Shown here one piece after another: positions 7,856-17,640 of a stretch of DNA of 64,000 nucleotides; the first letter of the stretch is position 1; each line of letters starts with the position of its first letter. The notes below the pieces were generated by a model. It searched no databases and was not told where the DNA came from. It saw only the letters and a program-made list of their open reading frames with translations. This DNA is from Alphaproteobacteria bacterium (GTDB lineage: Bacteria; Pseudomonadota; Alphaproteobacteria; G963923945). Where the stretch lies: positions 1,058,337-1,122,336 of the forward strand of contig OZ240684.1 of the NCBI GenBank assembly GCA_965199175.1. The letters run 5' to 3'. A program made the position numbers and the translations under genes.

Positions 7856-9298
7856 GTGACAACACAGAAAACAATTCTCCTGATCTCTGATGATACGGAA
7901 TTTGTAGAGGTCGCGCGTACGGCTTTCTCTCATACCGGCGATTACCGGCTTGTCCTCTGCGCAAACCGACATGCCGCGGCCAATCGTCTTGAGCAGATTG
8001 AGGCGCATCTTCTGATCGCGGATTACGATGTGGAGGATGGCCAGGGCGGCGAGGCACTTTGCGAGGCCAGAATCTCCCATCCTCAAATTCCAAGAATGCT
8101 CATCGCGAGGACAGAAATCGCGGTTACAGATTCAGATATTGTCCGCAGATGTGCTGCTTATTTGTTTTTGTTCAAGCCGGTTATGCCGACACAGTTGGAT
8201 ATTTCGGTTAAACGCGCATTGGAACTGAGCGAATTGTCACGTCGACACCGGTTGTTATCGCGTGAACTCAGAATTTCGATCGATGACGATATATTCGGTG
8301 ATGAGCACAAGATGTCGGTCAAAGGCGGCGTGTCGCAATTTGAGAAACTTGTGTTTGCCAGTCCAAAGATGGCTGAACTGGTTGAAGATGCAAGGCGGGC
8401 CGCTAAAACCGAGTTACCGGTATTGATTCATGGTGAAACAGGGACTGGAAAAGAATTGTTGGCGCGGGCGATACATTACAATTCGCAACGAATGGATTCA
8501 CCGCTTCTGGTTCAAAATTGCGGGGGGATGAGCGATGAAACTCTGCATTCTGAACTTTTTGGCCATCTGCGTGGCGCATTCACCGGAGCTGTTGCGGATC
8601 GTCTGGGTCTCTTTCGGGCCGCCGAAGGCGGGACTGTTTTTTTAGATGAAATCTCAGAAGTATCATCGAATTTTCAGGTCAGCTTGTTGAGGTTTCTCCA
8701 GGAAGGCGAAGTCAAACCTTTGGGATCGGACAAGGTGTCATACTCCAATGTTCGGATTGTCGCAGCATCCAATCGTTCACTGGAAGCAATGGTCGAATCT
8801 GGTGGCTTTCGACGAGATCTTTACTATCGGCTTAAAGGGTTTACCCTCTTAATTCCGCCGCTGCGGGAACGTCCGGAAGACATATCGGTCCTTGCTGAGT
8901 TTTTCCTTGAAAAATACGCAGGGGTTGTTGGTCGCCAGGTCATGGGTATTACGAAAGCTGCATTGGACGCGCTGGCTGCCTATAGATATCCGGGAAATGT
9001 CCGGGAGCTTGAAACAGAACTACAGAGAATGATCGCCGTTGCAGATCAAGGTGGATATATCTCGGAACGCCATTTGTCGCCTTCCATCCGACAAGCGGCA
9101 GCTGCCGGACACACCAATGGACCTCAAGCAATCGAAGGGGCCAATTTGAAAGAAATGGTAGAGAATCTAGAGCGTCAGGTGGTCAGGCAAACGCTGGAAA
9201 AAACACGATGGAATCAAAGCCAGGCGGCTCACATGCTCGGACTTTCCCGGGCTGGTTTGGCCAATAAAATCAAACGCTATAATCTTCAGGCGGAATAG
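7856..9298 (+). CDS. Sigma-54-dependent response regulator (NtrC family; HoxA/HupR-like hydrogenase activator)
   Basis: GTG start. Receiver domain, AAA+ sigma54-interaction domain (GETGTGKE, GAFTGA), and C-terminal Fis-type HTH. Confidence 0.85.
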   Translation: MTTQKTILLISDDTEFVEVARTAFSHTGDYRLVLCANRHAAANRLEQIEAHLLIADYDVEDGQGGEALCEARISHPQIPRMLIARTEIAVTDSDIVRRCAAYLFLFKPVMPTQLDISVKRALELSELSRRHRLLSRELRISIDDDIFGDEHKMSVKGGVSQFEKLVFASPKMAELVEDARRAAKTELPVLIHGETGTGKELLARAIHYNSQRMDSPLLVQNCGGMSDETLHSELFGHLRGAFTGAVADRLGLFRAAEGGTVFLDEISEVSSNFQVSLLRFLQEGEVKPLGSDKVSYSNVRIVAASNRSLEAMVESGGFRRDLYYRLKGFTLLIPPLRERPEDISVLAEFFLEKYAGVVGRQVMGITKAALDALAAYRYPGNVRELETELQRMIAVADQGGYISERHLSPSIRQAAAAGHTNGPQAIEGANLKEMVENLERQVVRQTLEKTRWNQSQAAHMLGLSRAGLANKIKRYNLQAE

Positions 9299-9308
9299 GT
9301 CGTTTCGG

Positions 9309-9542
9309 ATGTCTGAAAATGATGGGACCAAATGCTCCGGGAATATTGTGGGGTTTCCACAGTCACGCACCCGGATTGGACCTTTGCGTCCAGCAAAAGA
9401 CCTTGGTTTATCAAGGTTGTCGCGCCAAGTTGGGTCACATGGAAAAGCCGCTCAAGGTCATTGGTGCAGTCACTGCGAAGGCATTTGGTACAGCTATTTC
9501 CCGGAGTCCGAATGTCCCGTTTGTGGCAACCGGCATGGGTGA
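9309..9542 (+). CDS. Small hypothetical zinc-ribbon protein (C-terminal CxxC...CPxCG, rubredoxin-like)
   Basis: 77-aa ORF with WCSHC...CPVCGN. Three overlapping frames are open here, so coding status is uncertain. Confidence 0.3.
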   Translation: MSENDGTKCSGNIVGFPQSRTRIGPLRPAKDLGLSRLSRQVGSHGKAAQGHWCSHCEGIWYSYFPESECPVCGNRHG

Positions 9543-9672
9543 TCGAAACCTGCTCATTAACTTTACATCTGTAAAGTAAGTTGCATTGCTGTGTTGGGTA
9601 GGGAGGCTGAATTTTAGTGCCTGAATCTCATCAACTTGTTGATATTATGTATAAAAATTTTTGGACTAAAAC

Positions 9673-9689
9673 TGGCATTGTTTTTGCTT
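9673..9689 (+). promoter_or_regulatory. Sigma-54 (-24/-12) promoter upstream of hydrogenase small subunit
   Basis: TGGCATtgtttTTGCTT has GG and GC separated by exactly 10 nt and lies ~140 bp upstream of the hupS start. Two 16-bp direct repeats (aagttagcagacagaa) sit between it and the RBS. Confidence 0.6.
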
Positions 9690-9829
9690 AATATCGTGCT
9701 GTGGATCATACGGTGATTGATAATCCGTTCGAACAAGCAGATGAAAACCAAAACAAAGTTAGCAGACAGAACAAAAAAGTTAGCAGACAGAAAAAGAGAT
9801 AGAGACAGAAAAACGAAGGAGGAAAAAGA

Positions 9830-10792
9830 ATGGCTAATTTATTATGGCTCCAGGGCGGGGCCTGCTCTGGAAACACAATGTCGTTTCTGAATGCCGAGGA
9901 ACCCAGTGCCTGCGATCTTGTCACCGATTTCGGGATCAATGTTCTTTGGCAGCCGTCACTCGGCCTGGAACTCGGAGACGATGTTAAAGCGATACTGCAA
10001 AAATGTATTTCCGGTGATATCCAGCTGGATATTTTCGTTTTTGAAGGGACGGTTATTGACGCCCCCAACGGGACCGGCGAATGGAACCGGTTTTGTGGTC
10101 GGGCAATGAAAGAATGGGTCAAAGAACTTTCAGCAGCGGCTCAATTTGTTGTTGCTATTGGAGACTGTGCTACTTGGGGCGGTATTCCGGCAACCGCGCC
10201 CAATCCTTCGGATTCCAGGGGTCTGCAATTCCTGAAACGCGAGAAAGGTGGTGCCCTTGGGGAAGGGTTCACATCCAAAGCCGGCCTTCCGGTCATCAAT
10301 ATTCCGGGCTGCCCGGCTCACCCCGATTGGGTCACCCAAATTCTGGTGGCGGTTGCGACCGGACGGGCCGGAGACCTGACCCTTGATGAATTCCAGAGGC
10401 CAAAGACATTTTTCTCAAGTTTCACGCAAACTGGTTGTACTCGAAACATGCATTTTGCTTATAAAGTCTCCTCGACAGCGTTTGGCCAGCGTAAAGGCTG
10501 CCTGTTCTATGACCTTGGTTGCCGTGGGCCGATGACTCATAGCCCATGCAACCGGATTCTCTGGAACCGTCAGTCATCGAAAACTCGCGCCGGTATGCCT
10601 TGTCTGGGTTGCACGGAACCTGAGTTCCCGTTTTTTGATTTAGCACCTGGCACAGTCTTTAAAACTCAGACTGTGATGGGCGTACCCAAAGATCTGCCGA
10701 CAGGCGTGGAAAAAACTGGCTATGTAAAATTGACTGCCGCAGCCAAGGGTGCTGCCCCAGCCTGGGCTGAAAAAGACATTTTCGTCGTCTGA
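9830..10792 (+). CDS. hupS: [NiFe]-hydrogenase small subunit, no Tat signal peptide (group 2a-like HupS)
   Basis: Begins directly MANLLWLQGGACSGN. It has the conserved Cys ligands of the proximal, medial and distal FeS clusters. At 320 aa it matches cyanobacterial-type HupS length. RBS GGAGGAAAAAGA precedes the ATG. Confidence 0.9.
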   Translation: MANLLWLQGGACSGNTMSFLNAEEPSACDLVTDFGINVLWQPSLGLELGDDVKAILQKCISGDIQLDIFVFEGTVIDAPNGTGEWNRFCGRAMKEWVKELSAAAQFVVAIGDCATWGGIPATAPNPSDSRGLQFLKREKGGALGEGFTSKAGLPVINIPGCPAHPDWVTQILVAVATGRAGDLTLDEFQRPKTFFSSFTQTGCTRNMHFAYKVSSTAFGQRKGCLFYDLGCRGPMTHSPCNRILWNRQSSKTRAGMPCLGCTEPEFPFFDLAPGTVFKTQTVMGVPKDLPTGVEKTGYVKLTAAAKGAAPAWAEKDIFVV

Positions 10793-10841
10793 AGTCAGTG
10801 AACAAACAAAAGTCAGTGAACAAATAAAGGGAATTTAAACA

Positions 10842-12437
10842 ATGTCAGCAGCAGTTCAAACTCTTGATATTTCTCCTGTCGGGCGCGTTGAAGGCGACCT
10901 TGACGTTCGTGTCGATATTTCGGATGGCGTTGTAACCAATGCCTGGACAAATGCGGAAATGTTCCGCGGCTTTGAAGTCATCTTGAAAGACAAAGACCCC
11001 CAGGCTGGCCTGGTCGTCACGCCCCGCGCCTGTGGCATCTGTGGTGCGTCGCATCTGACATGTGCTGCCTGGGCGTTGGATACAGCCTGGAGCACGACTG
11101 TCCCAAGAAATGCCATTTTGGCCCGCAACCTTGGTCAGATTGTCGAATCGCTTCAGTCTTTGCCCAGGCATCATTACGGCTTGTTCATGATTGATTACAC
11201 GAACAAAAATTACGCCAATTCGGTTTTTTTCGAAGAAGCCGTCAAGCGCTATGCGCCGTTTACCGGTACTTCCTACGAAGCTGGCGTGACGATTTCCGGC
11301 AGACCGGTTGAGATTTATGCTCTGCTCGGTGGGCAGTGGCCGCACTCATCTTACATGGTGCCAGGTGGCGTGATGTGTGCGCCGACTTTGACGGATGTGA
11401 CCCGGGCCTGGTCGATCCTTGAACACTTTCGACGTAACTGGATTGAACCATTATGGCTTGGATGTTCGATGGAGCGGTATGAAAGCATTCAGACATTAGA
11501 AGATTTTGAGGCATGGCTTGATGAACGTCCGGAACATGCGCGTTCAGACCTCGGCCTTTATTGGCGAATGTCCAAAGATATCGGTCTGGATCAATACGGC
11601 AAAGGCCATGGCAAATTCATCACCTGGGGTTATCTGCCCCATGAGGACAAATATCAAAACCCAACCATTGATGCACGCAGCGGCGCGGTCATCATGAAGG
11701 CCGGGGTATATGATGGTGCTTCTGACAGCTTCCAACCGATGGAACAGTCGTTGGCCCGGGAAGATATGATCCATTCCTGGTACGATGAAGGCAATGATAT
11801 TCACCCTTTTGACCGCACAACCAATCCGATTATGAAGAATGAGATTGATCCGGATGGAAAATATTCCTGGTGCACTTCGGTTCGCCACACTGAAAACGGT
11901 CGCCTTGAGGCGGGTCCACTTGCGCGTCGCCTGGTTTCTGGAGGACCGGGTCAGGATTTCCAGCATTCGGACGGCCTGATCCTGGATATGTATCGGAAGA
12001 TGGGTGGTGCTTCGATTATGCTGCGCCATTTCGCACGGATGCATGAACTGTGTATTCTCTACCGCGAAGCTGAGCGTATTCTGCGTGAATTCAAGCTCAA
12101 TGACGAATGGTATATCAAACCAACCGAGAAAGATGGGCGTGGTTGGGGTGCTACGGAGGCAATTCGTGGTGCCCTCTGCCACTGGATTGATGTTGAAGGC
12201 GGTAAGATCAAGAACTATCAGATCATCGCGCCGACCACCTGGAATGTTGGTCCTCGCGCTGAGAACGGCGAACGGGGACCGATCGAAGAGGCACTCATTG
12301 GGACGCCGATTGCCAACTCTTCGGATCCGGTCGAAGTCGGCCATGTGTGTCGGTCCTATGACAGCTGTTTGGTCTGCACCGTCCATGCTCATGATGGCAA
12401 GACAGGCGAAGAGCTTGCGCGGTTTCGTACGGCGTAA
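10842..12437 (+). CDS. hupL: [NiFe]-hydrogenase large subunit with C-terminal extension
   Basis: N-terminal RACGICGASH and C-terminal DSCLVCTVH motifs ligate the Ni-Fe site. About 16 residues follow the final His, which is a substrate for endopeptidase cleavage. 531 aa. Confidence 0.9.
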   Translation: MSAAVQTLDISPVGRVEGDLDVRVDISDGVVTNAWTNAEMFRGFEVILKDKDPQAGLVVTPRACGICGASHLTCAAWALDTAWSTTVPRNAILARNLGQIVESLQSLPRHHYGLFMIDYTNKNYANSVFFEEAVKRYAPFTGTSYEAGVTISGRPVEIYALLGGQWPHSSYMVPGGVMCAPTLTDVTRAWSILEHFRRNWIEPLWLGCSMERYESIQTLEDFEAWLDERPEHARSDLGLYWRMSKDIGLDQYGKGHGKFITWGYLPHEDKYQNPTIDARSGAVIMKAGVYDGASDSFQPMEQSLAREDMIHSWYDEGNDIHPFDRTTNPIMKNEIDPDGKYSWCTSVRHTENGRLEAGPLARRLVSGGPGQDFQHSDGLILDMYRKMGGASIMLRHFARMHELCILYREAERILREFKLNDEWYIKPTEKDGRGWGATEAIRGALCHWIDVEGGKIKNYQIIAPTTWNVGPRAENGERGPIEEALIGTPIANSSDPVEVGHVCRSYDSCLVCTVHAHDGKTGEELARFRTA

Positions 12438-12507: not shown

Positions 12508-12897
12508 GTGGTGGCTTCGATGGTTGGTGATATTTCTGTTGCGGCGGAGTCTTCGGCTTATCGGCAACGTTACGGGGTTTTGCCTTCCGAGGCCGACCAC
12601 GCAACCCTCATGAAGATGATTGAGGATTTATTTAAGGAGGGTCTGGAGACTCAGATTGAGCCATTTCCGAAAACTGACCGGGAATTTGCGGCGATTCTTG
12701 ATGATCTGCGGATGCTTACGCCAGACCAGCTTCGGGAAAAACTGGTGCTTTCCGGATGGCTTCTCAAGCCCCATGGTGAAGATCAGATGCGTTGTCAGGA
12801 ATGCATGTATTTTCTTGTCCATCGTCGCTGGTGCGATCTTCCGGAGTTGAATTTGCCTGCGGAACCGGAATGGTGGTGCAGATTGTGGAGAATTTAG
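12508..12897 (+). CDS. Hypothetical protein, paralog 1, conserved C-terminal 4-Cys motif (hydrogenase-cluster associated)
   Basis: C-terminus QECMYFLVHRRWCDLPELNLPAEPEWWCRLWRI. Paralogous to the next gene. Confidence 0.5.
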   Translation: MVASMVGDISVAAESSAYRQRYGVLPSEADHATLMKMIEDLFKEGLETQIEPFPKTDREFAAILDDLRMLTPDQLREKLVLSGWLLKPHGEDQMRCQECMYFLVHRRWCDLPELNLPAEPEWWCRLWRI

Positions 12898-12907
12898 GAG
12901 AGAGGAA

Positions 12908-13240
12908 GTGTCTGACCAAGCGTCAAGTCCTGAAGACGATGCGTTGCGCGACCATATCGCGGAGACATTGTCTTCGGGGATAGAAACCGAAGTCTGGCCA
13001 CGCGCCGAAACTTCGGAGATGGTTGAGAATATTGTCAAGCGCTTACAAACCGAAGCCAGAGACGACCTGGACAAGAAGCTGATCATCGGCGGTTTCACCG
13101 ACCACATCATCGAAGCCGAAGGATTGGAACAACCCTGTGAGACTTGTATGTATTACTTGGTGCATCGGAAATTTTGCGAATTACCGGAGTTGATGTTGCC
13201 AGTCGAACCGCATTGGTCTTGCAGACTTTGGCGCATTTGA
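12908..13240 (+). CDS. Hypothetical protein, paralog 2, conserved C-terminal 4-Cys motif
   Basis: C-terminus CETCMYYLVHRKFCELPELMLPVEPHWSCRLWRI aligns residue-for-residue with the previous ORF. GTG start. Confidence 0.5.
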   Translation: MSDQASSPEDDALRDHIAETLSSGIETEVWPRAETSEMVENIVKRLQTEARDDLDKKLIIGGFTDHIIEAEGLEQPCETCMYYLVHRKFCELPELMLPVEPHWSCRLWRI

Positions 13241-13716
13241 ATCCGGCGACAGTCATCATCGGTTGCGGCAACCCGAACCGAAGCGATGATGGAGTCGGCC
13301 CCTATGTCGTTTCCTTGCTTCGTGATCGGGATCTTGGTGATCATGTCTCGCTTTATGATGGCGGGACCGATGGTATGGGTGTCATGTACCGGCTGCGGGG
13401 CTTTGAGCGTCTGGTCATCATTGACGCCCGCATGCCTCAGGGGACTCCGGGCGCATTATATGAAGTCCCCGGAGACGTTCTGGAAACGCGTCCGCCACAA
13501 AGTCTCAATCTTCATGATTTCAGATGGGATCATGCTCTTTATGTCGGCCGCCAAATATATGGCACGGCGTTTCCGGATGATGTATCGGTGTTTTTAATTG
13601 AAGCAGCCAATCTTGATCTGGGATTGGAGATCAGCCCACACATTCAGGCGACGGCCTTGAAAGTTGCAGCGCAGATTGAGCATATGGTGACCGCGCGTGA
13701 TGCGGCGGCTATTTAG
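13237..13716 (+). CDS. hupD: Hydrogenase maturation endopeptidase (HybD/HupD family)
   Basis: Motif VIIGCGNPNRSDDGVGPYVV matches the GxGNxxxxDDGxG signature. The proposed TTG start overlaps the upstream stop. An ATG at 13144 in the track would overlap the previous gene by ~100 nt. Confidence 0.75.
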   Translation: MNPATVIIGCGNPNRSDDGVGPYVVSLLRDRDLGDHVSLYDGGTDGMGVMYRLRGFERLVIIDARMPQGTPGALYEVPGDVLETRPPQSLNLHDFRWDHALYVGRQIYGTAFPDDVSVFLIEAANLDLGLEISPHIQATALKVAAQIEHMVTARDAAAI

Positions 13717-13719
13717 GGA

Positions 13720-14031
13720 GTGGCGATGGCGGTGCGTATTGGCGTCCGGGATGGGTCTGTGTATCTCAATCGGCAGACCGTTGAGACGTATTTCCGGCAT
13801 ATTGACGCTGTAATCATTTTGATCCGTGACCAACAGTTGCAGATTCTGCCGGTTCGGCAGATGGCTGCGGGGGGGTGTTTGCTAAAAGTCCGTAATGCGG
13901 TTGGGGACCGGGTGGCGAACAGCCCGGATGTCTTCGCCGAGCACGGGCTTTCGGCTTGGCGTGATGATGATATTGAGGCAGTTTGGTCGGCGACTCTCGG
14001 TGCTCTTGTTGCAGAGATATCCGCATACTAA
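13720..14031 (+). CDS. Hypothetical protein (hydrogenase cluster)
   Basis: 103-aa ORF. RBS GGGAG lies 6 nt upstream of the ATG, immediately after hupD. Confidence 0.35.
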   Translation: MAMAVRIGVRDGSVYLNRQTVETYFRHIDAVIILIRDQQLQILPVRQMAAGGCLLKVRNAVGDRVANSPDVFAEHGLSAWRDDDIEAVWSATLGALVAEISAY

Positions 14032-14132: not shown

Positions 14133-15122
14133 ATGGTCGCGCGCAGCCGTACCGAAGATGAGGTGAATGCGGCCTTAAAGACGGTCGAAGGAAGCGGCGC
14201 ATCGACGCAGGAAAAAGCCGAGATGCTTATGGAAATCGCCATGGGCCTCCAACAAAAGCCCAAAGCTCCGGGTGATCTTCATGCTGCGGTCACTCTCTAT
14301 AAAAGGAGTCTGGAGCAAGCCAGAGACGCAGATTCGCTGCTTCAGGCACGTATTCGTGCGCGCATGGCCACTGCTATGATGGCCATACCTGGCGATACGA
14401 CGCATTTTCTGGAAAGCGCCCGGGGCGAATTGCAGGACGCCCTGGAGATATTACAAACCGAAGGCCTTGATGCAGAAATCGCAGAAGCCGAAATGAATTT
14501 GGGCCTGGTCTTGCAAAACCTTGCAGAAGTTGGCCAGGGCCGCATTCAAGATGCCATATCGGCCTATCAACGTGCCTTAAGGGTCTTTGATAAAGCCAGT
14601 CATCCTGTAGAATTCGCCATTCTGCAAAATAACATCGCAACTGCTTTCCTTTCGATTCCTTTCACTCAGGAGAGTGGTAAGATGCGGGAGGCTCTGGCCG
14701 TGCAGGCATTTGAAGAGGGTTTGAAAGTGGTCAATCTGATTGACCACCCCCGTGAATACGCCATGTTACAGAATAATCTTGGCAACGCTCTTCAGTACGC
14801 TTCGTCAAGCCATCGGGTTGAAAATGGTTTTCGGGCACTGGAGGCTTATGACGAAGCCTTGAAAGTGAGAACATCCCGCGATATGCCGGATGAATATGCC
14901 AACACCATCGCCAATAAGGCAAATTGCCTGGTCAACCTACCTGATGACCCAGAAAACCCTGACACCGGCAATCAGCATCACTTGTCAATAGCCCAGACTC
15001 TCTACAAGGAAGCGCATACGATTTTCGAGAATACCGGAGCACTCGACAAAGCGGCAATGGTGGCCGAAGCCCTGGCGAACCTATCTTCCGAAACCCGTTT
15101 CGGCCAACCCATCGTTCATTGA
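14133..15122 (+). CDS. TPR-like repeat protein (hydrogenase cluster)
   Basis: 329 aa, helical, with repeated A/L/Y-rich ~34-aa units (ALxxYxxAL patterns). Confidence 0.55.
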   Translation: MVARSRTEDEVNAALKTVEGSGASTQEKAEMLMEIAMGLQQKPKAPGDLHAAVTLYKRSLEQARDADSLLQARIRARMATAMMAIPGDTTHFLESARGELQDALEILQTEGLDAEIAEAEMNLGLVLQNLAEVGQGRIQDAISAYQRALRVFDKASHPVEFAILQNNIATAFLSIPFTQESGKMREALAVQAFEEGLKVVNLIDHPREYAMLQNNLGNALQYASSSHRVENGFRALEAYDEALKVRTSRDMPDEYANTIANKANCLVNLPDDPENPDTGNQHHLSIAQTLYKEAHTIFENTGALDKAAMVAEALANLSSETRFGQPIVH

Positions 15123-15346
15123 AGAAAAAAGCCACAGAAGGAGACCTGGCAATGGAACCTCTCATATTCATCCTGGCATTGGTGCTCGGGGTTGCTGCAT
15201 CTATCGGTGCCGGCGTGTTATCGGGTCTTTGGATCGGCAAAGACGCTCTTGGCGGCGAACTTGCCGCCTTTATGGGCGGGCTTTACGGCCTCATGTCCGG
15301 CATCGTCGGCGTCAGCGCCGGTTTGGCCGCTCTATTACTGGTTTAA
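15119..15346 (+). CDS. Small membrane protein (2 predicted TM helices)
   Basis: 75 aa with Gly/Ala-rich hydrophobic segments. Overlaps the upstream stop. Confidence 0.4.
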   Translation: MKKKATEGDLAMEPLIFILALVLGVAASIGAGVLSGLWIGKDALGGELAAFMGGLYGLMSGIVGVSAGLAALLLV

Positions 15347-15357
15347 GGGGGAGTCGG

Positions 15358-15579
15358 ATGTTGAGTATAGCACTGAATTCAGCAAAATTGTTCTTCGCGG
15401 GAAAACTCTTCCAGGATAACAAGAAAGTCTTGCGTCAATTTGCCATTGGTGCCGGGGCTGGGGGAATTGCGACTGTTATCGTTGCTCAATTCACGCCGCT
15501 GTGGCTCGCCGCGATGGCTGGCGGTGCTGTTTGCGGCTTTCTTCAACCAATTTTGTTTAAAGATCTGAAATACGCGTGA
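15358..15579 (+). CDS. Small membrane protein (2 predicted TM helices)
   Basis: ATG follows GGGGGAG. 73 aa with two hydrophobic stretches. Confidence 0.4.
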   Translation: MLSIALNSAKLFFAGKLFQDNKKVLRQFAIGAGAGGIATVIVAQFTPLWLAAMAGGAVCGFLQPILFKDLKYA

Positions 15580-15583
15580 TCCG

Positions 15584-16459
15584 ATGTCTGATGGTCCCGC
15601 AGCGCAGGAAGGCCGCTCGCTTGATGATCTCCTGAAAGATCTATCGGCTCTTGAAGCCCTGGCGAACGGATGGGAGAGTGCTGAACGCAACGGTGCTCAG
15701 GCCCGTGCCGAGGCCGTTGATGCTCTGAATGCGGAGGCTTTCCGTCGACTGATCAGAGTTCTCCGGGATACACCGGGCATGGAAAGTGCCTTACGTAGCG
15801 CTGCTGGTGACGAAGTTGTTTATGCGGTCTTGCGCCGTCATGGAATTCTAAAACCATCGCTTTTTGAGCGCGTTGACACAGCCCTCGACAGCGTACGTCC
15901 CATGCTGGTCAATCATGGTGGAAATGCCGAACTGGTCGCCGTCGATGGTCACTGTGCCACCATCCGGTTTCTCGGCAACTGTGATGGCTGCCCGGCCTCC
16001 GCCCTGACATTCTACGCAGGAGTAAAAAAAGCGATTCAAGACCAGGTTCCGGAAATTAGCGAGATCAAGCAAGCTAAAGGACTGGGGGGAGGCAGTGGAG
16101 GCGACAGTCAAACGACCCATTTCATATCACCATTTGCTACCTATCAGAGTGAAGGCTGGAGCTATGCCTGTGGCCTGCATGAGCTTGCCGATGGTGCTAC
16201 CACTATCCTGGATATCGAAGAACACTCAATTTTGCTGTCCCGCTTCGGTGATCGGATAACATGTTTTGAAAATGCTTGCGCGCATATGGGAATGGCGATG
16301 GATGGCGGCGAAATCAGCGATGGTTTGATCACCTGTCCTCATCATGAATTCAGGTACTCCCTGGAAACCGGAGAATGTCTGACCGCCCCGGAGGTCCAGC
16401 TGCAACCCCATGGCGTTCGCGTTGTCAGCGATATGGTCGAGGTACGGTTGACGCAATGA
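15584..16459 (+). CDS. NifU-like plus Rieske [2Fe-2S] fusion protein (mycobacterial HucE/HhyE-like hydrogenase-associated FeS protein)
   Basis: NifU C-terminal-type segment LVNHGGNAELVAVDGHCATIRFLGNCDGCPAS, followed by Rieske motifs CAH...CPHH. Confidence 0.7.
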   Translation: MSDGPAAQEGRSLDDLLKDLSALEALANGWESAERNGAQARAEAVDALNAEAFRRLIRVLRDTPGMESALRSAAGDEVVYAVLRRHGILKPSLFERVDTALDSVRPMLVNHGGNAELVAVDGHCATIRFLGNCDGCPASALTFYAGVKKAIQDQVPEISEIKQAKGLGGGSGGDSQTTHFISPFATYQSEGWSYACGLHELADGATTILDIEEHSILLSRFGDRITCFENACAHMGMAMDGGEISDGLITCPHHEFRYSLETGECLTAPEVQLQPHGVRVVSDMVEVRLTQ

Positions 16460-17640
16460 AGGCAATGATGCTCTCCTCCTTCCAGCCGCTCAAGGCACCA
16501 GGAACTGTGAAAGCAGGCCGATTATTGCTGGATGAAGGCGGACCGGAAGTCATCCTTGGCTGGCGGCAGGGGGAATTGGCGGCTCCTCTTACACCAAGTC
16601 CCTCGACTATGTTCGGACCGCGGGGAGTATGCCTGCACCCTGATGGCTCATTTTGGGCTTCTGATACCGGACATCATCGCCTTCTGGGATGGCACACAAC
16701 ACCCTATCATGATAATGCGGCAGCCGATATCGTCATCGGCCAGCCGGATTTCCTGAGAGAAGGGCGCAATGCCAAGGCAGAGCCCAGTGCCGCAACACTG
16801 AACATGCCGACCGGCGTGGCGGCCTGGGGCAATGGTCTGGCGGTTGCCGATGCTTGGAATCACCGGATTTTGTTGTGGAAAACAACTCCCCGGCAAAGCG
16901 GTCAGGCCGCCGATATCATTTTGGGACAGGAGACCAATATTTCAATCGACGCCAACCGGGGTGCCGACCAACCGACCAAAGCCAGCCTGCACTGGCCTTG
17001 CGGGGTCTCGGTCATTGATGGAAAATTGGTTGTTTGCGACACCGGAAACCGTCGGGTTCTGATCTGGGATCATCCCAAAAAAACCGGGCAACCGGCTGAT
17101 TTGGTTCTGGGTCAATATGATTTTACGACCCGGGACGAGAATGCCGGTGGTCCTGTTTCGGCAATGTCTATGCGGTGGCCACATATGGCCACCTCCTGGT
17201 CTGGGCGTTTTGTTGTAGCTGATGCGGGCAATAACCGAATCATGGTCTGGAACCACATGCCCAGTCACAACGGTGCGTCATCAACATTCATTCTTGGCCA
17301 ACATGATGCGGTTGGATGCGACCATAATCTTGCTGATTATTATCCATGTGCGGCCTCGGTCAACATGCCTTATGCGGCTATCGCCGCAGGGCAAAGGCTG
17401 GTGGTCGCCGATACGGCGAATTCGCGGTTGATTGGATGGTCCAGGGCGGTCACAGGAAGTGATGCTGACCGGCTGACCGGTCAACCGGATTTTGCGGCCA
17501 AAGGGGATAATCGTTGGGGTATGGCGGAACGCGATAGCCTATGCTGGCCTTATGGCCTCTCGGTATTGGACGATTGGATTGCAATCGCAGATAGCGGGAA
17601 CAACCGCGTGCTTTTGTGGCGGGTCGCCGATGCCGGGTGA
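16456..17640 (+). CDS. NHL-repeat beta-propeller protein (hydrogenase-associated)
   Basis: The ATG overlaps the upstream stop (ATGA). At least six repeats of the DxGNxRIxxW/D type (ADAWNHRILLW, CDTGNRRVLIWD, ADAGNNRIMVWN, ADTANSRLIGW, ADSGNNRVLLW). Confidence 0.7.
   Translation: MKAMMLSSFQPLKAPGTVKAGRLLLDEGGPEVILGWRQGELAAPLTPSPSTMFGPRGVCLHPDGSFWASDTGHHRLLGWHTTPYHDNAAADIVIGQPDFLREGRNAKAEPSAATLNMPTGVAAWGNGLAVADAWNHRILLWKTTPRQSGQAADIILGQETNISIDANRGADQPTKASLHWPCGVSVIDGKLVVCDTGNRRVLIWDHPKKTGQPADLVLGQYDFTTRDENAGGPVSAMSMRWPHMATSWSGRFVVADAGNNRIMVWNHMPSHNGASSTFILGQHDAVGCDHNLADYYPCAASVNMPYAAIAAGQRLVVADTANSRLIGWSRAVTGSDADRLTGQPDFAAKGDNRWGMAERDSLCWPYGLSVLDDWIAIADSGNNRVLLWRVADAG

Follow-up and report, generated by a model that had tools for sequence, protein, structure and literature searches.

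Group 2a [NiFe]-hydrogenases (Huc) allow aerobic bacteria to live partly on the trace H2 of air and seawater. To our knowledge, the sole structural account of how Huc delivers electrons to respiration is that of the mycobacterial enzyme. In this system a third small protein encoded with hucS and hucL, HucM, acts as a helical membrane plugin: its coiled coils build a tube in which menaquinone is held, it links the cytoplasmic Huc to the quinone pool of the membrane, and the published description mentions no metal site (PMC10017518). Here we describe two adjacent small genes, ORF1 and ORF2, in the Huc cluster of an alphaproteobacterium. They lie in a 64,000-nucleotide stretch of contig OZ240684.1 (GenBank assembly GCA_965199175.1, positions 1,058,337 to 1,122,336 of the forward strand), which is called the window below and numbered from its first letter. 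In the alphaproteobacterial clusters examined, no relative of HucM was found; these two uncharacterised genes are always there instead. We propose that ORF1 and ORF2 encode cytoplasmic paralogues resembling high-potential iron-sulfur proteins (HiPIPs), which would serve as [4Fe-4S] electron-relay or docking subunits of Huc. On the sequence comparisons and the structural model presented here, this proposal has about an even chance of being right.

Other cluster-encoded proteins have been considered for the electron output of such hydrogenases. HucE and HhyE are putative Fe-S proteins that were proposed as relays for high-affinity hydrogenases (PMC6883350). They combine NifU with a Rieske [2Fe-2S] domain, a fold and a cluster type other than those proposed for ORF1 and ORF2, and a HucE homologue is encoded in the window 2.3 kb downstream of the pair (15584..16459), where it is co-present with ORF1 and ORF2 and not a substitute for them. 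A second case is the 'putative HiPIP' DN052_04130 of Acidithiobacillus ferrooxidans, encoded close to the hupLS genes of a group 2a cluster, in the pair of loci DN052_04125-04130 (PMC7735108). Kucera et al. (2020) report that DN052_04125-04130, two loci without a known function, were induced and that the putative HiPIP was detected as a protein during growth on H2. They suggest, in a single paragraph and on the strength of its annotation, that it may form the link to the ubiquinone pool (PMC7735108). The HiPIP idea therefore pre-exists as a passing, annotation-based remark. Judged by the paper's description alone, DN052_04130 probably belongs to the same family as ORF1 and ORF2. Full-text literature searches returned no paper joining Huc, hydrogenase and HiPIP, nor any joining 'HiPIP-like' and hydrogenase. 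What the searchable literature leaves undescribed is the family with its two conserved paralogue types, the lack of a model for it in Pfam and NCBIfam, the strictness with which it accompanies alphaproteobacterial Huc, including that of an experimentally active strain, and its fusions to cytochrome b.

Results

ORF1 and ORF2 are paralogous genes kept together with Huc

ORF1 (12508..12897; 129 aa) and ORF2 (12908..13240; 110 aa) are located, as originally predicted, between hupL, the gene of the hydrogenase large subunit, and hupD, that of a maturation protease; these and all other features of the window are on the + strand unless stated otherwise. Both genes have a GTG start. An alternative ATG at 12520 would shorten the ORF1 product to 125 aa, which is the version held in public databases. 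ORF2 begins eleven bases past the stop codon of ORF1, and GGAGAGAGGAA precedes its start codon. When the two genes were compared with ten related loci, the substitutions at codon positions 1/2/3 numbered 300/168/690 for ORF1 and 264/146/628 for ORF2. Both are clearly coding and are genuine genes under selection. An antisense ORF of 160 aa (12628..13110, - strand) spans parts of both genes; since the substitution pattern suits the + frames, it is most likely an artefact opposite the coding strand.

The original prediction held that the two proteins have a C-terminal motif with four cysteines in common and that their N-terminal halves differ. The motif reads in both proteins as given then. The N-terminal halves are indeed more divergent but still homologous: BLASTP of the pair gave 39% identity across 106 aa (E 5e-25), in an alignment that begins at residue 27 of ORF1 and residue 6 of ORF2, and several N-terminal columns are invariant in both paralogues. 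ORF1 and ORF2 are therefore paralogues over nearly their full length, beyond the C-terminus alone. ORF1 has ~25 extra N-terminal residues, which are followed by a helical region and by the domain with the four cysteines (Cys4 domain). Homologues are numerous in public protein collections, with 779 clusters for ORF2 and 246 for ORF1 (the latter typically 128 aa), and every named one is called 'hypothetical'.

Each protein contains exactly four Cys. In ORF1 these are Cys96, 99, 109 and 124 (nucleotides 12793, 12802, 12832 and 12877), within a C-terminal domain at 12757..12894, supported by its invariant residues and by the profile alignment to HiPIP ligands described below; in ORF2 they are Cys77, 80, 90 and 105 (nucleotides 13136, 13145, 13175 and 13220), within the corresponding domain at 13091..13237. 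In a 42-sequence alignment that includes both paralogues, the four Cys are invariant together with M81, Y82, H86, L92, P93, E94, P98, W103, L107, W108 and R109 (ORF2 numbering), and the spacing C-x2-C-x9-C-x14-C-x2-W is exact in 322/390 family members fetched. No twin-arginine motif or hydrophobic leader was found in either protein (maximum 19-residue hydropathy of 0.62 in ORF1 and 0.44 in ORF2) and the N-termini are acidic; both proteins are thus predicted to be cytoplasmic.

The distribution of the pair was examined in a scan of one genome per species, which gave 382 stretches encoding relatives; the synteny counts in this work refer to the best 80 of these 382 loci. All 80 are alphaproteobacterial and come from Rhodobacterales, Rhodospirillales, Hyphomicrobiales, Sphingomonadales and other groups. 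The order hucS-hucL-ORF1-ORF2-protease-103-aa protein was found in 80/80 loci, wherever the contig reaches. A hydrogenase-specific role, which the original prediction had suggested from gene position, is supported by this strict synteny with Huc-type hucS and hucL.

The cluster is carried on plasmids in Sphingopyxis, Novosphingobium, Roseovarius, Octadecabacter, Bradyrhizobium and Mesorhizobium (plasmid matches H1-H12), and the plasmids carrying it in six genera are predicted to be mobilizable or conjugative. Among the 80 loci (L001-L080), HucS was found in 77, with an identity of 73-97% overall and of at least 88% in 75 of them; for HucL the identity reaches at least 80% in 77/79 loci from several alphaproteobacterial orders. 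Such high identity across orders, together with the location on plasmids, suggests that the entire cluster has often been transferred horizontally. On the plasmid of Sphingopyxis alaskensis RB2256 the pair corresponds to SALA_RS16235 and SALA_RS16240, both annotated 'hypothetical protein'. The hydrogenase of S. alaskensis draws H2 down to sub-atmospheric levels, and the oxidation of atmospheric H2 by this organism is reported as presumably the first such demonstration in a marine bacterium (PMC10305171).

The Cys-rich domain most likely folds like a HiPIP

Scans of both ORFs against Pfam and NCBIfam at E <=1 identified no family, while searches of this kind did identify the neighbouring protease and NifU-Rieske protein, as well as HypD, HypE and HypB. 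Ten isolated C-terminal domains gave no Pfam match at E <=10. The initial remark that the two proteins match no HupF/G/H/I/J/K-type family is borne out by these scans, in which neither ORF matched a Hyp model either. Sequence searches of the PDB with ORF2 and with a family profile yielded nothing beyond designed helical repeats and one match, to nitrile hydratase, that was not significant.

The last match, between the N-terminal region and the nitrile hydratase alpha subunit (E 0.1 in the profile search), raises the question of whether ORF1 and ORF2 are precursors of ribosomally synthesised and post-translationally modified peptides (RiPPs), with a nitrile-hydratase-like leader and a Cys-rich core. 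The presence of tandem small genes with a Cys-rich tail would suit such precursors. However, this explanation is effectively refuted. Not only is the match not significant, but no NHLP-type leader model of NCBIfam was matched at E <=1; the supposed core is the most conserved part of the protein, almost invariant across hundreds of sequences; no modification enzyme or transporter occurs among the neighbouring genes scanned against Pfam; and the domain is also found fused to large proteins.

An AlphaFold2 (AF2) model of ORF2, built from a mixed alignment of the paralogues, had a predicted local distance difference test score (pLDDT) of 87. It consists of helices at residues 8-22, 36-50 and 54-61, followed by a compact Cys4 domain that is poor in secondary structure. 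A Foldseek search of the PDB with this model gave no match. In a structure comparison of the model, the beta chain of benzylsuccinate synthase, a HiPIP-like subunit, appeared at rank 10; the beta and also the gamma subunits of that enzyme count among the known proteins nearest to the family. The predicted domain agrees with a HiPIP in two characteristics, namely four candidate Cys ligands in the order C-x2-C...C...C and the predicted HiPIP fold.

Independently of the AF2 model, a family profile made from 74 non-redundant C-termini was compared with a profile of nine canonical HiPIPs, consisting of that of Allochromatium vinosum, checked against 1CKU, and eight encoded by plasmid genes (five annotated as HiPIP and three located in unannotated stretches). 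The program hhalign returned a weak profile-profile signal (score 25.0, P 1.6e-4, probability 51%), and none of 200 column-shuffled controls reached 25.0 (mean 10.0, sd 2.7, maximum 23.2). In the extended alignment the four family Cys fall on the A. vinosum HiPIP ligands C43, C46, C63 and C77, and the C-x2-W of the family falls on C77-x2-W80. Against the single A. vinosum sequence the result was not significant (probability 0.4%), the signal being obtained only with the nine-sequence profile. Around the first two ligands the family reads CxxC-M-[YF], compared with CANCQF in A. vinosum and CDNCMFF in a Halomonas HiPIP; the x9 spacing between Cys is also common to the Halomonas protein and the family. 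From the model and these alignments, we conclude that the Cys-rich tail most likely folds like a HiPIP.

This result bears on the nature of the metal site, whose Cys spacing the original prediction had likened to that of a zinc ribbon or rubredoxin. Such an identity is unsupported because the family has one CxxC and two single Cys, not the two CxxC (or CPxC) knuckles of a tetrahedral Fe or Zn site, and the four residues align on the four cluster ligands of HiPIPs.

ORF1 and ORF2 nevertheless differ in several respects from described HiPIPs (PF01355; e.g. A. vinosum 1CKU and Rhodothermus marinus 3H31). They match neither the Pfam model nor the exact PROSITE signature. The eight plasmid HiPIPs collected here all have twin-arginine leaders, whereas ORF1 and ORF2 have no Tat signal and are predicted to be cytoplasmic. 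In addition, ORF1 and ORF2 possess an N-terminal helical region of ~60 aa, and their family is tied to the hydrogenase cluster, either as tandem paralogues or as fusions.

In some relatives the ORF1-type module is fused to cytochrome b beside hydrogenase genes

An exhaustive profile search gave 150 representative proteins. Besides short forms of ~100-130 aa, these comprise many proteins of 330-450 aa with the module at their extreme C-terminus. One of the latter, P0247 (391 aa), carries a cytochrome b domain (PF01292, E 1.6e-13) at its N-terminus, ahead of the family module, and a follow-up search showed that about nine full-length protein clusters are cytochrome b-module fusions of this kind. 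The P0247 gene is directly 3' of a NiFe small-subunit gene. In the P0392 context the gene order is NifU-Rieske, hucS, hucL, a second hucS-like gene and the fusion; in the P0396 context it is cytochrome c, a 536-aa protein, the fusion, a 90-aa protein, hucS, hucL and a short family member, with hyp genes on the opposite strand. NiFe small-subunit genes were thus beside the fusions in 3/3 contexts, and a Huc-length large subunit was seen in two. A metagenomic Huc cluster (L085) has two small-subunit genes around one large-subunit gene; the second (9001..9960 of that locus; 319 aa, 79% identical to the HucS of the window) lies between hucL and a fusion of cytochrome b with the HiPIP-like module.

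A crude hydropathy and charge analysis of eight fusions showed five hydrophobic segments in every one of them, with a loop between transmembrane segments 3 and 4 (TM3-TM4) that is strongly positive. The topology predicted from these features places the fused module in the cytoplasm, that is, on the side of the signal-less HucS. HyaC and HupC, the cytochromes b of other hydrogenases, also belong to PF01292, and the covalent joining of the module to a PF01292 cytochrome b beside Huc genes implies the same task, the passage of electrons from the small subunit to quinone. The fused cytochrome b itself is nearest not to HyaC but to cytochrome b domains joined to molybdopterin oxidoreductase (PF00174), a type that is YedYZ-like in some sources. 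A cytochrome b domain is absent from both ORFs of the window, and the cluster genes that were examined did not show one either.

When the proteins were scored against one profile for each type, the module was assigned to the ORF1 type in 8/8 fusions and in 37/39 long forms. The ORF2 type occurred solely as a stand-alone short protein. The long forms (P0244-P0324, ~330-545 aa, e.g. 10001..11209 of locus L082) have an N-terminal region of roughly 230-440 aa, according to the length of the protein, for which there was no Pfam match and no sequence relative in the PDB. In one context the gene of a 402-aa long form, P0250, is directly upstream of hucS-hucL and adjoins a cyo-type oxidase operon; an ORF2-type copy is found 3' of hucL in the same context.

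ORF1 and ORF2 show no sequence similarity to HucM

Long forms such as P0250 can hold the same position upstream of hucS as the gene of HucM. A HucM-like relative was looked for by PDB searches with ORF2, the family profile, the 402-aa long form and the 103-aa protein of the cluster. None was obtained, and no chain of the Huc entries 7utd and 7uus, in which we assume a HucM chain to be present, was returned. Homology to HucM is rejected by these sequence searches. ORF1 and ORF2 also carry a Cys4 domain and no amphipathic tube, and the C-terminus of the ORF2 model is the Cys domain, not a long helix.

These comparisons are relevant to the idea that ORF1 and ORF2 are structural subunits without redox function. 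Their Cys would then bind Zn or a purely structural cluster, and they would give HucSL a scaffold, bring about its oligomerisation or fasten it to the membrane, in analogy to HucM but without electron transport. The failure to detect a HucM-like protein and the occupation of the HucM gene position by a long form are consistent with this idea, and the helical N-terminal region and the many invariant non-Cys surface residues suit docking. In addition, the C-terminal region of HucS, which forms part of the quinone site in Mycobacterium smegmatis, is conserved. We nevertheless consider a purely structural function unlikely. The predicted fold and the ligand match are those of a cubane-binding HiPIP, not of a Zn module; neither ORF1 nor ORF2 has an amphipathic coiled coil or transmembrane segments; and fusion to a haem-binding electron-transfer domain is better suited to a redox role.

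The gene pair within the Huc cluster of the window

The hydrogenase genes of the window are hucS (hupS; 9830..10792), encoding a group 2a [NiFe]-hydrogenase small subunit of 320 aa without a Tat signal, and hucL (hupL; 10842..12437), encoding a large subunit of 531 aa. The best PDB match of HucS is M. smegmatis HucS (7uur/7utd, E 5e-157; next match 4e-36) and that of HucL is M. smegmatis HucL (E 2e-181; next match 2.5e-61). By this sequence comparison the hydrogenase is of the Huc type, in agreement with the group 2a assignment made at the outset.

Immediately 3' of the pair lies the gene of the hydrogenase maturation endopeptidase (HupD/HycI family; 13237..13716). Its probable TTG start at 13237 overlaps the stop codon of ORF2 (TTGA), an arrangement that suggests translational coupling. 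This proximity is compatible with ORF1 and ORF2 being maturation or protection factors, which would act transiently in the aerobic assembly of the small-subunit clusters or of the active site. In group 1 hydrogenases, the rubredoxin-type proteins HoxR/HupI are regarded as factors of this transient kind and do not belong to the working enzyme. Beyond the coupling to the protease gene, hypA and hypB directly follow one long form, and the cluster encodes other accessory proteins (NifU-Rieske, TPR and NHL). Huc clusters without ORF1 and ORF2 genes also exist (Parageobacillus listing), and assembly roles have been held possible for HucE by other authors (PMC6883350). On the other hand, it would be hard to account for the joining of such a factor to a membrane cytochrome b, the genes of the long forms and fusions accompany the structural genes, upstream of hucS, and neither protein shows similarity in Pfam or NCBIfam to known Hyp, Hup or Hox maturation families. 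A maturation role is, in our judgement, doubtful.

At the head of the cluster is the gene of a sigma-54-dependent transcriptional activator (7856..9298), present in 71/80 loci. Control of the cluster by this activator would be in keeping with a sensor of redox state or O2, in which a labile cluster would report this state and modulate the activity or the expression of Huc; Cys4 Fe-S domains do act as sensors in other systems. We regard this as very improbable, since neither protein has a DNA-binding or signalling domain and since a sensor would explain neither the presence of two conserved paralogues in each cluster nor the fusions to cytochrome b.

In the interval between the activator gene and hucS, positions 9673..9687 read TGGCATTGTTTTTGC, one base off the sigma-54 consensus TGGCAC-N5-TTGC and ~143 nt upstream of hucS. 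From this placement it is likely to be the operon promoter; matches to the sigma-54-like pattern showed no enrichment across the window overall. The same interval contains an unannotated ORF of 77 aa (9309..9542) that ends HWCSHCEGIW...ECPVCGNRHG and whose CxxC...CxxC resembles a zinc ribbon. Relatives were found by tblastn in 70/80 related loci, with ~62-75% identity among the matches listed, and a further one is located 3' of the activator gene in a more distant metagenomic Huc cluster (L082, 49%). The two frames that overlap this ORF are not conserved, and it is without annotation on the S. alaskensis plasmid.

Downstream of the protease gene, the cluster continues with a conserved 103-aa protein (13720..14031; 80/80 loci) that had no family match and no PDB relative; a hypothetical protein also sits after the protease in the Parageobacillus Huc listing. 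It is followed by a TPR protein (14133..15122; 78/80 loci) and by two small hydrophobic proteins of 75 aa (15119..15346; 49/80 loci) and ~73 aa (15358..15579; 75/80 loci), at whose place two proteins of ~70 aa are annotated in S. alaskensis. His is absent from both of these small membrane proteins, which therefore cannot bind haem through the usual His ligation. They may anchor Huc, which is otherwise soluble, in the membrane. Next come the HucE-like NifU-Rieske protein mentioned above, identified by Pfam and NCBIfam scans and by synteny, and an NHL-repeat protein (16456..17640; the reading frame is open from 16375), whose probable ATG start overlaps the NifU-Rieske stop. The hyp genes begin at ~17627. 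Among them hypF, hypD, hypE and hypB were recognised, and hypC is additionally present in related annotated clusters.

Discussion

Of the accessory roles first suggested for ORF1 and ORF2, metal handling or an electron relay, the relay is the function with the best support, while the zinc- or rubredoxin-type site that went with the suggestion is not retained. In such a relay, the four invariant Cys would most likely hold one [4Fe-4S] cluster in the C-terminal domain of ~50 aa, where it would be shielded by the invariant aromatic residues, that is, the Tyr after the CxxC and the Trp before and after the last Cys. The N-terminal helical part would dock onto HucSL, so that the clusters of ORF1 and ORF2 would lengthen the Fe-S wire of the small subunit. 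We infer that electrons from H2 would pass from the distal cluster to the ORF2-type protein, then to the ORF1-type protein and finally to an acceptor at the level of the membrane or of quinone. The ORF2-type protein would stand beside the enzyme and the ORF1-type module would join to the output. This output may be the covalently attached membrane cytochrome b in some lineages; in the alphaproteobacterial cluster the module is free-standing.

Several observations weigh against this proposal. Some of them concern the fold. The HiPIP-like fold comes from a single AF2 model. A second model, that of ORF1 built from orthologues only, had a pLDDT <50 in the Cys domain and is unreliable, and it is because of this poor model that the fold of ORF1 was assigned by homology to ORF2. 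The PROSITE HiPIP pattern (PS00596), C-x(6,9)-[LIVM]-x3-G-[YW]-C-x2-[FYW], occurs in its exact form in 0/390 members of the family; its spacing without the Gly is found in 329/390.

Other observations concern the need for a relay. The Huc of M. smegmatis reduces menaquinone directly, at a site formed by HucS and HucM (PMC10017518, PMC13433803), and the HucS of the window has kept the C-terminal region that contributes to this site. With direct quinone reduction and a conserved HucS C-terminus, an extra relay may be unneeded. For purified Huc three subunits are reported (PMC10017518), and HucE, which had earlier been put forward as a relay, is not one of them; cluster-encoded Fe-S proteins, therefore, need not be stable subunits. 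The Hup hydrogenase of A. ferrooxidans was purified with two subunits only, as quoted by Kucera et al. (PMC7735108). Finally, the Parageobacillus Huc cluster listing has no gene at all between the large subunit and the protease.

A broader and more tentative possibility, which we hold to be less likely than the relay or docking function itself, is that the family is a general adaptor that links the cytoplasmic, high-affinity Huc of Gram-negative bacteria to the respiratory chain and replaces the HucM tube of mycobacteria. The ORF2-type protein would bind HucS, and the ORF1-type module would pass the electrons on to an output that differs between lineages, either a cytochrome b or a long-form domain of roughly 250-340 aa fused to it or, in Alphaproteobacteria, some other acceptor.

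A family with hundreds of members that is absent from Pfam and NCBIfam is now defined, and with it the HiPIP fold is extended, by prediction, to a cytoplasmic, enzyme-bound setting. Recognition of this fold, together with the cytochrome b fusions, provides a concrete hypothesis for the electron output of Huc in bacteria that use ubiquinone. If the adaptor hypothesis is true, the Huc of marine and soil bacteria that use ubiquinone would comprise four subunits and contain two additional [4Fe-4S] clusters, and the potentials of these clusters would help to set the thermodynamics of atmospheric H2 oxidation.

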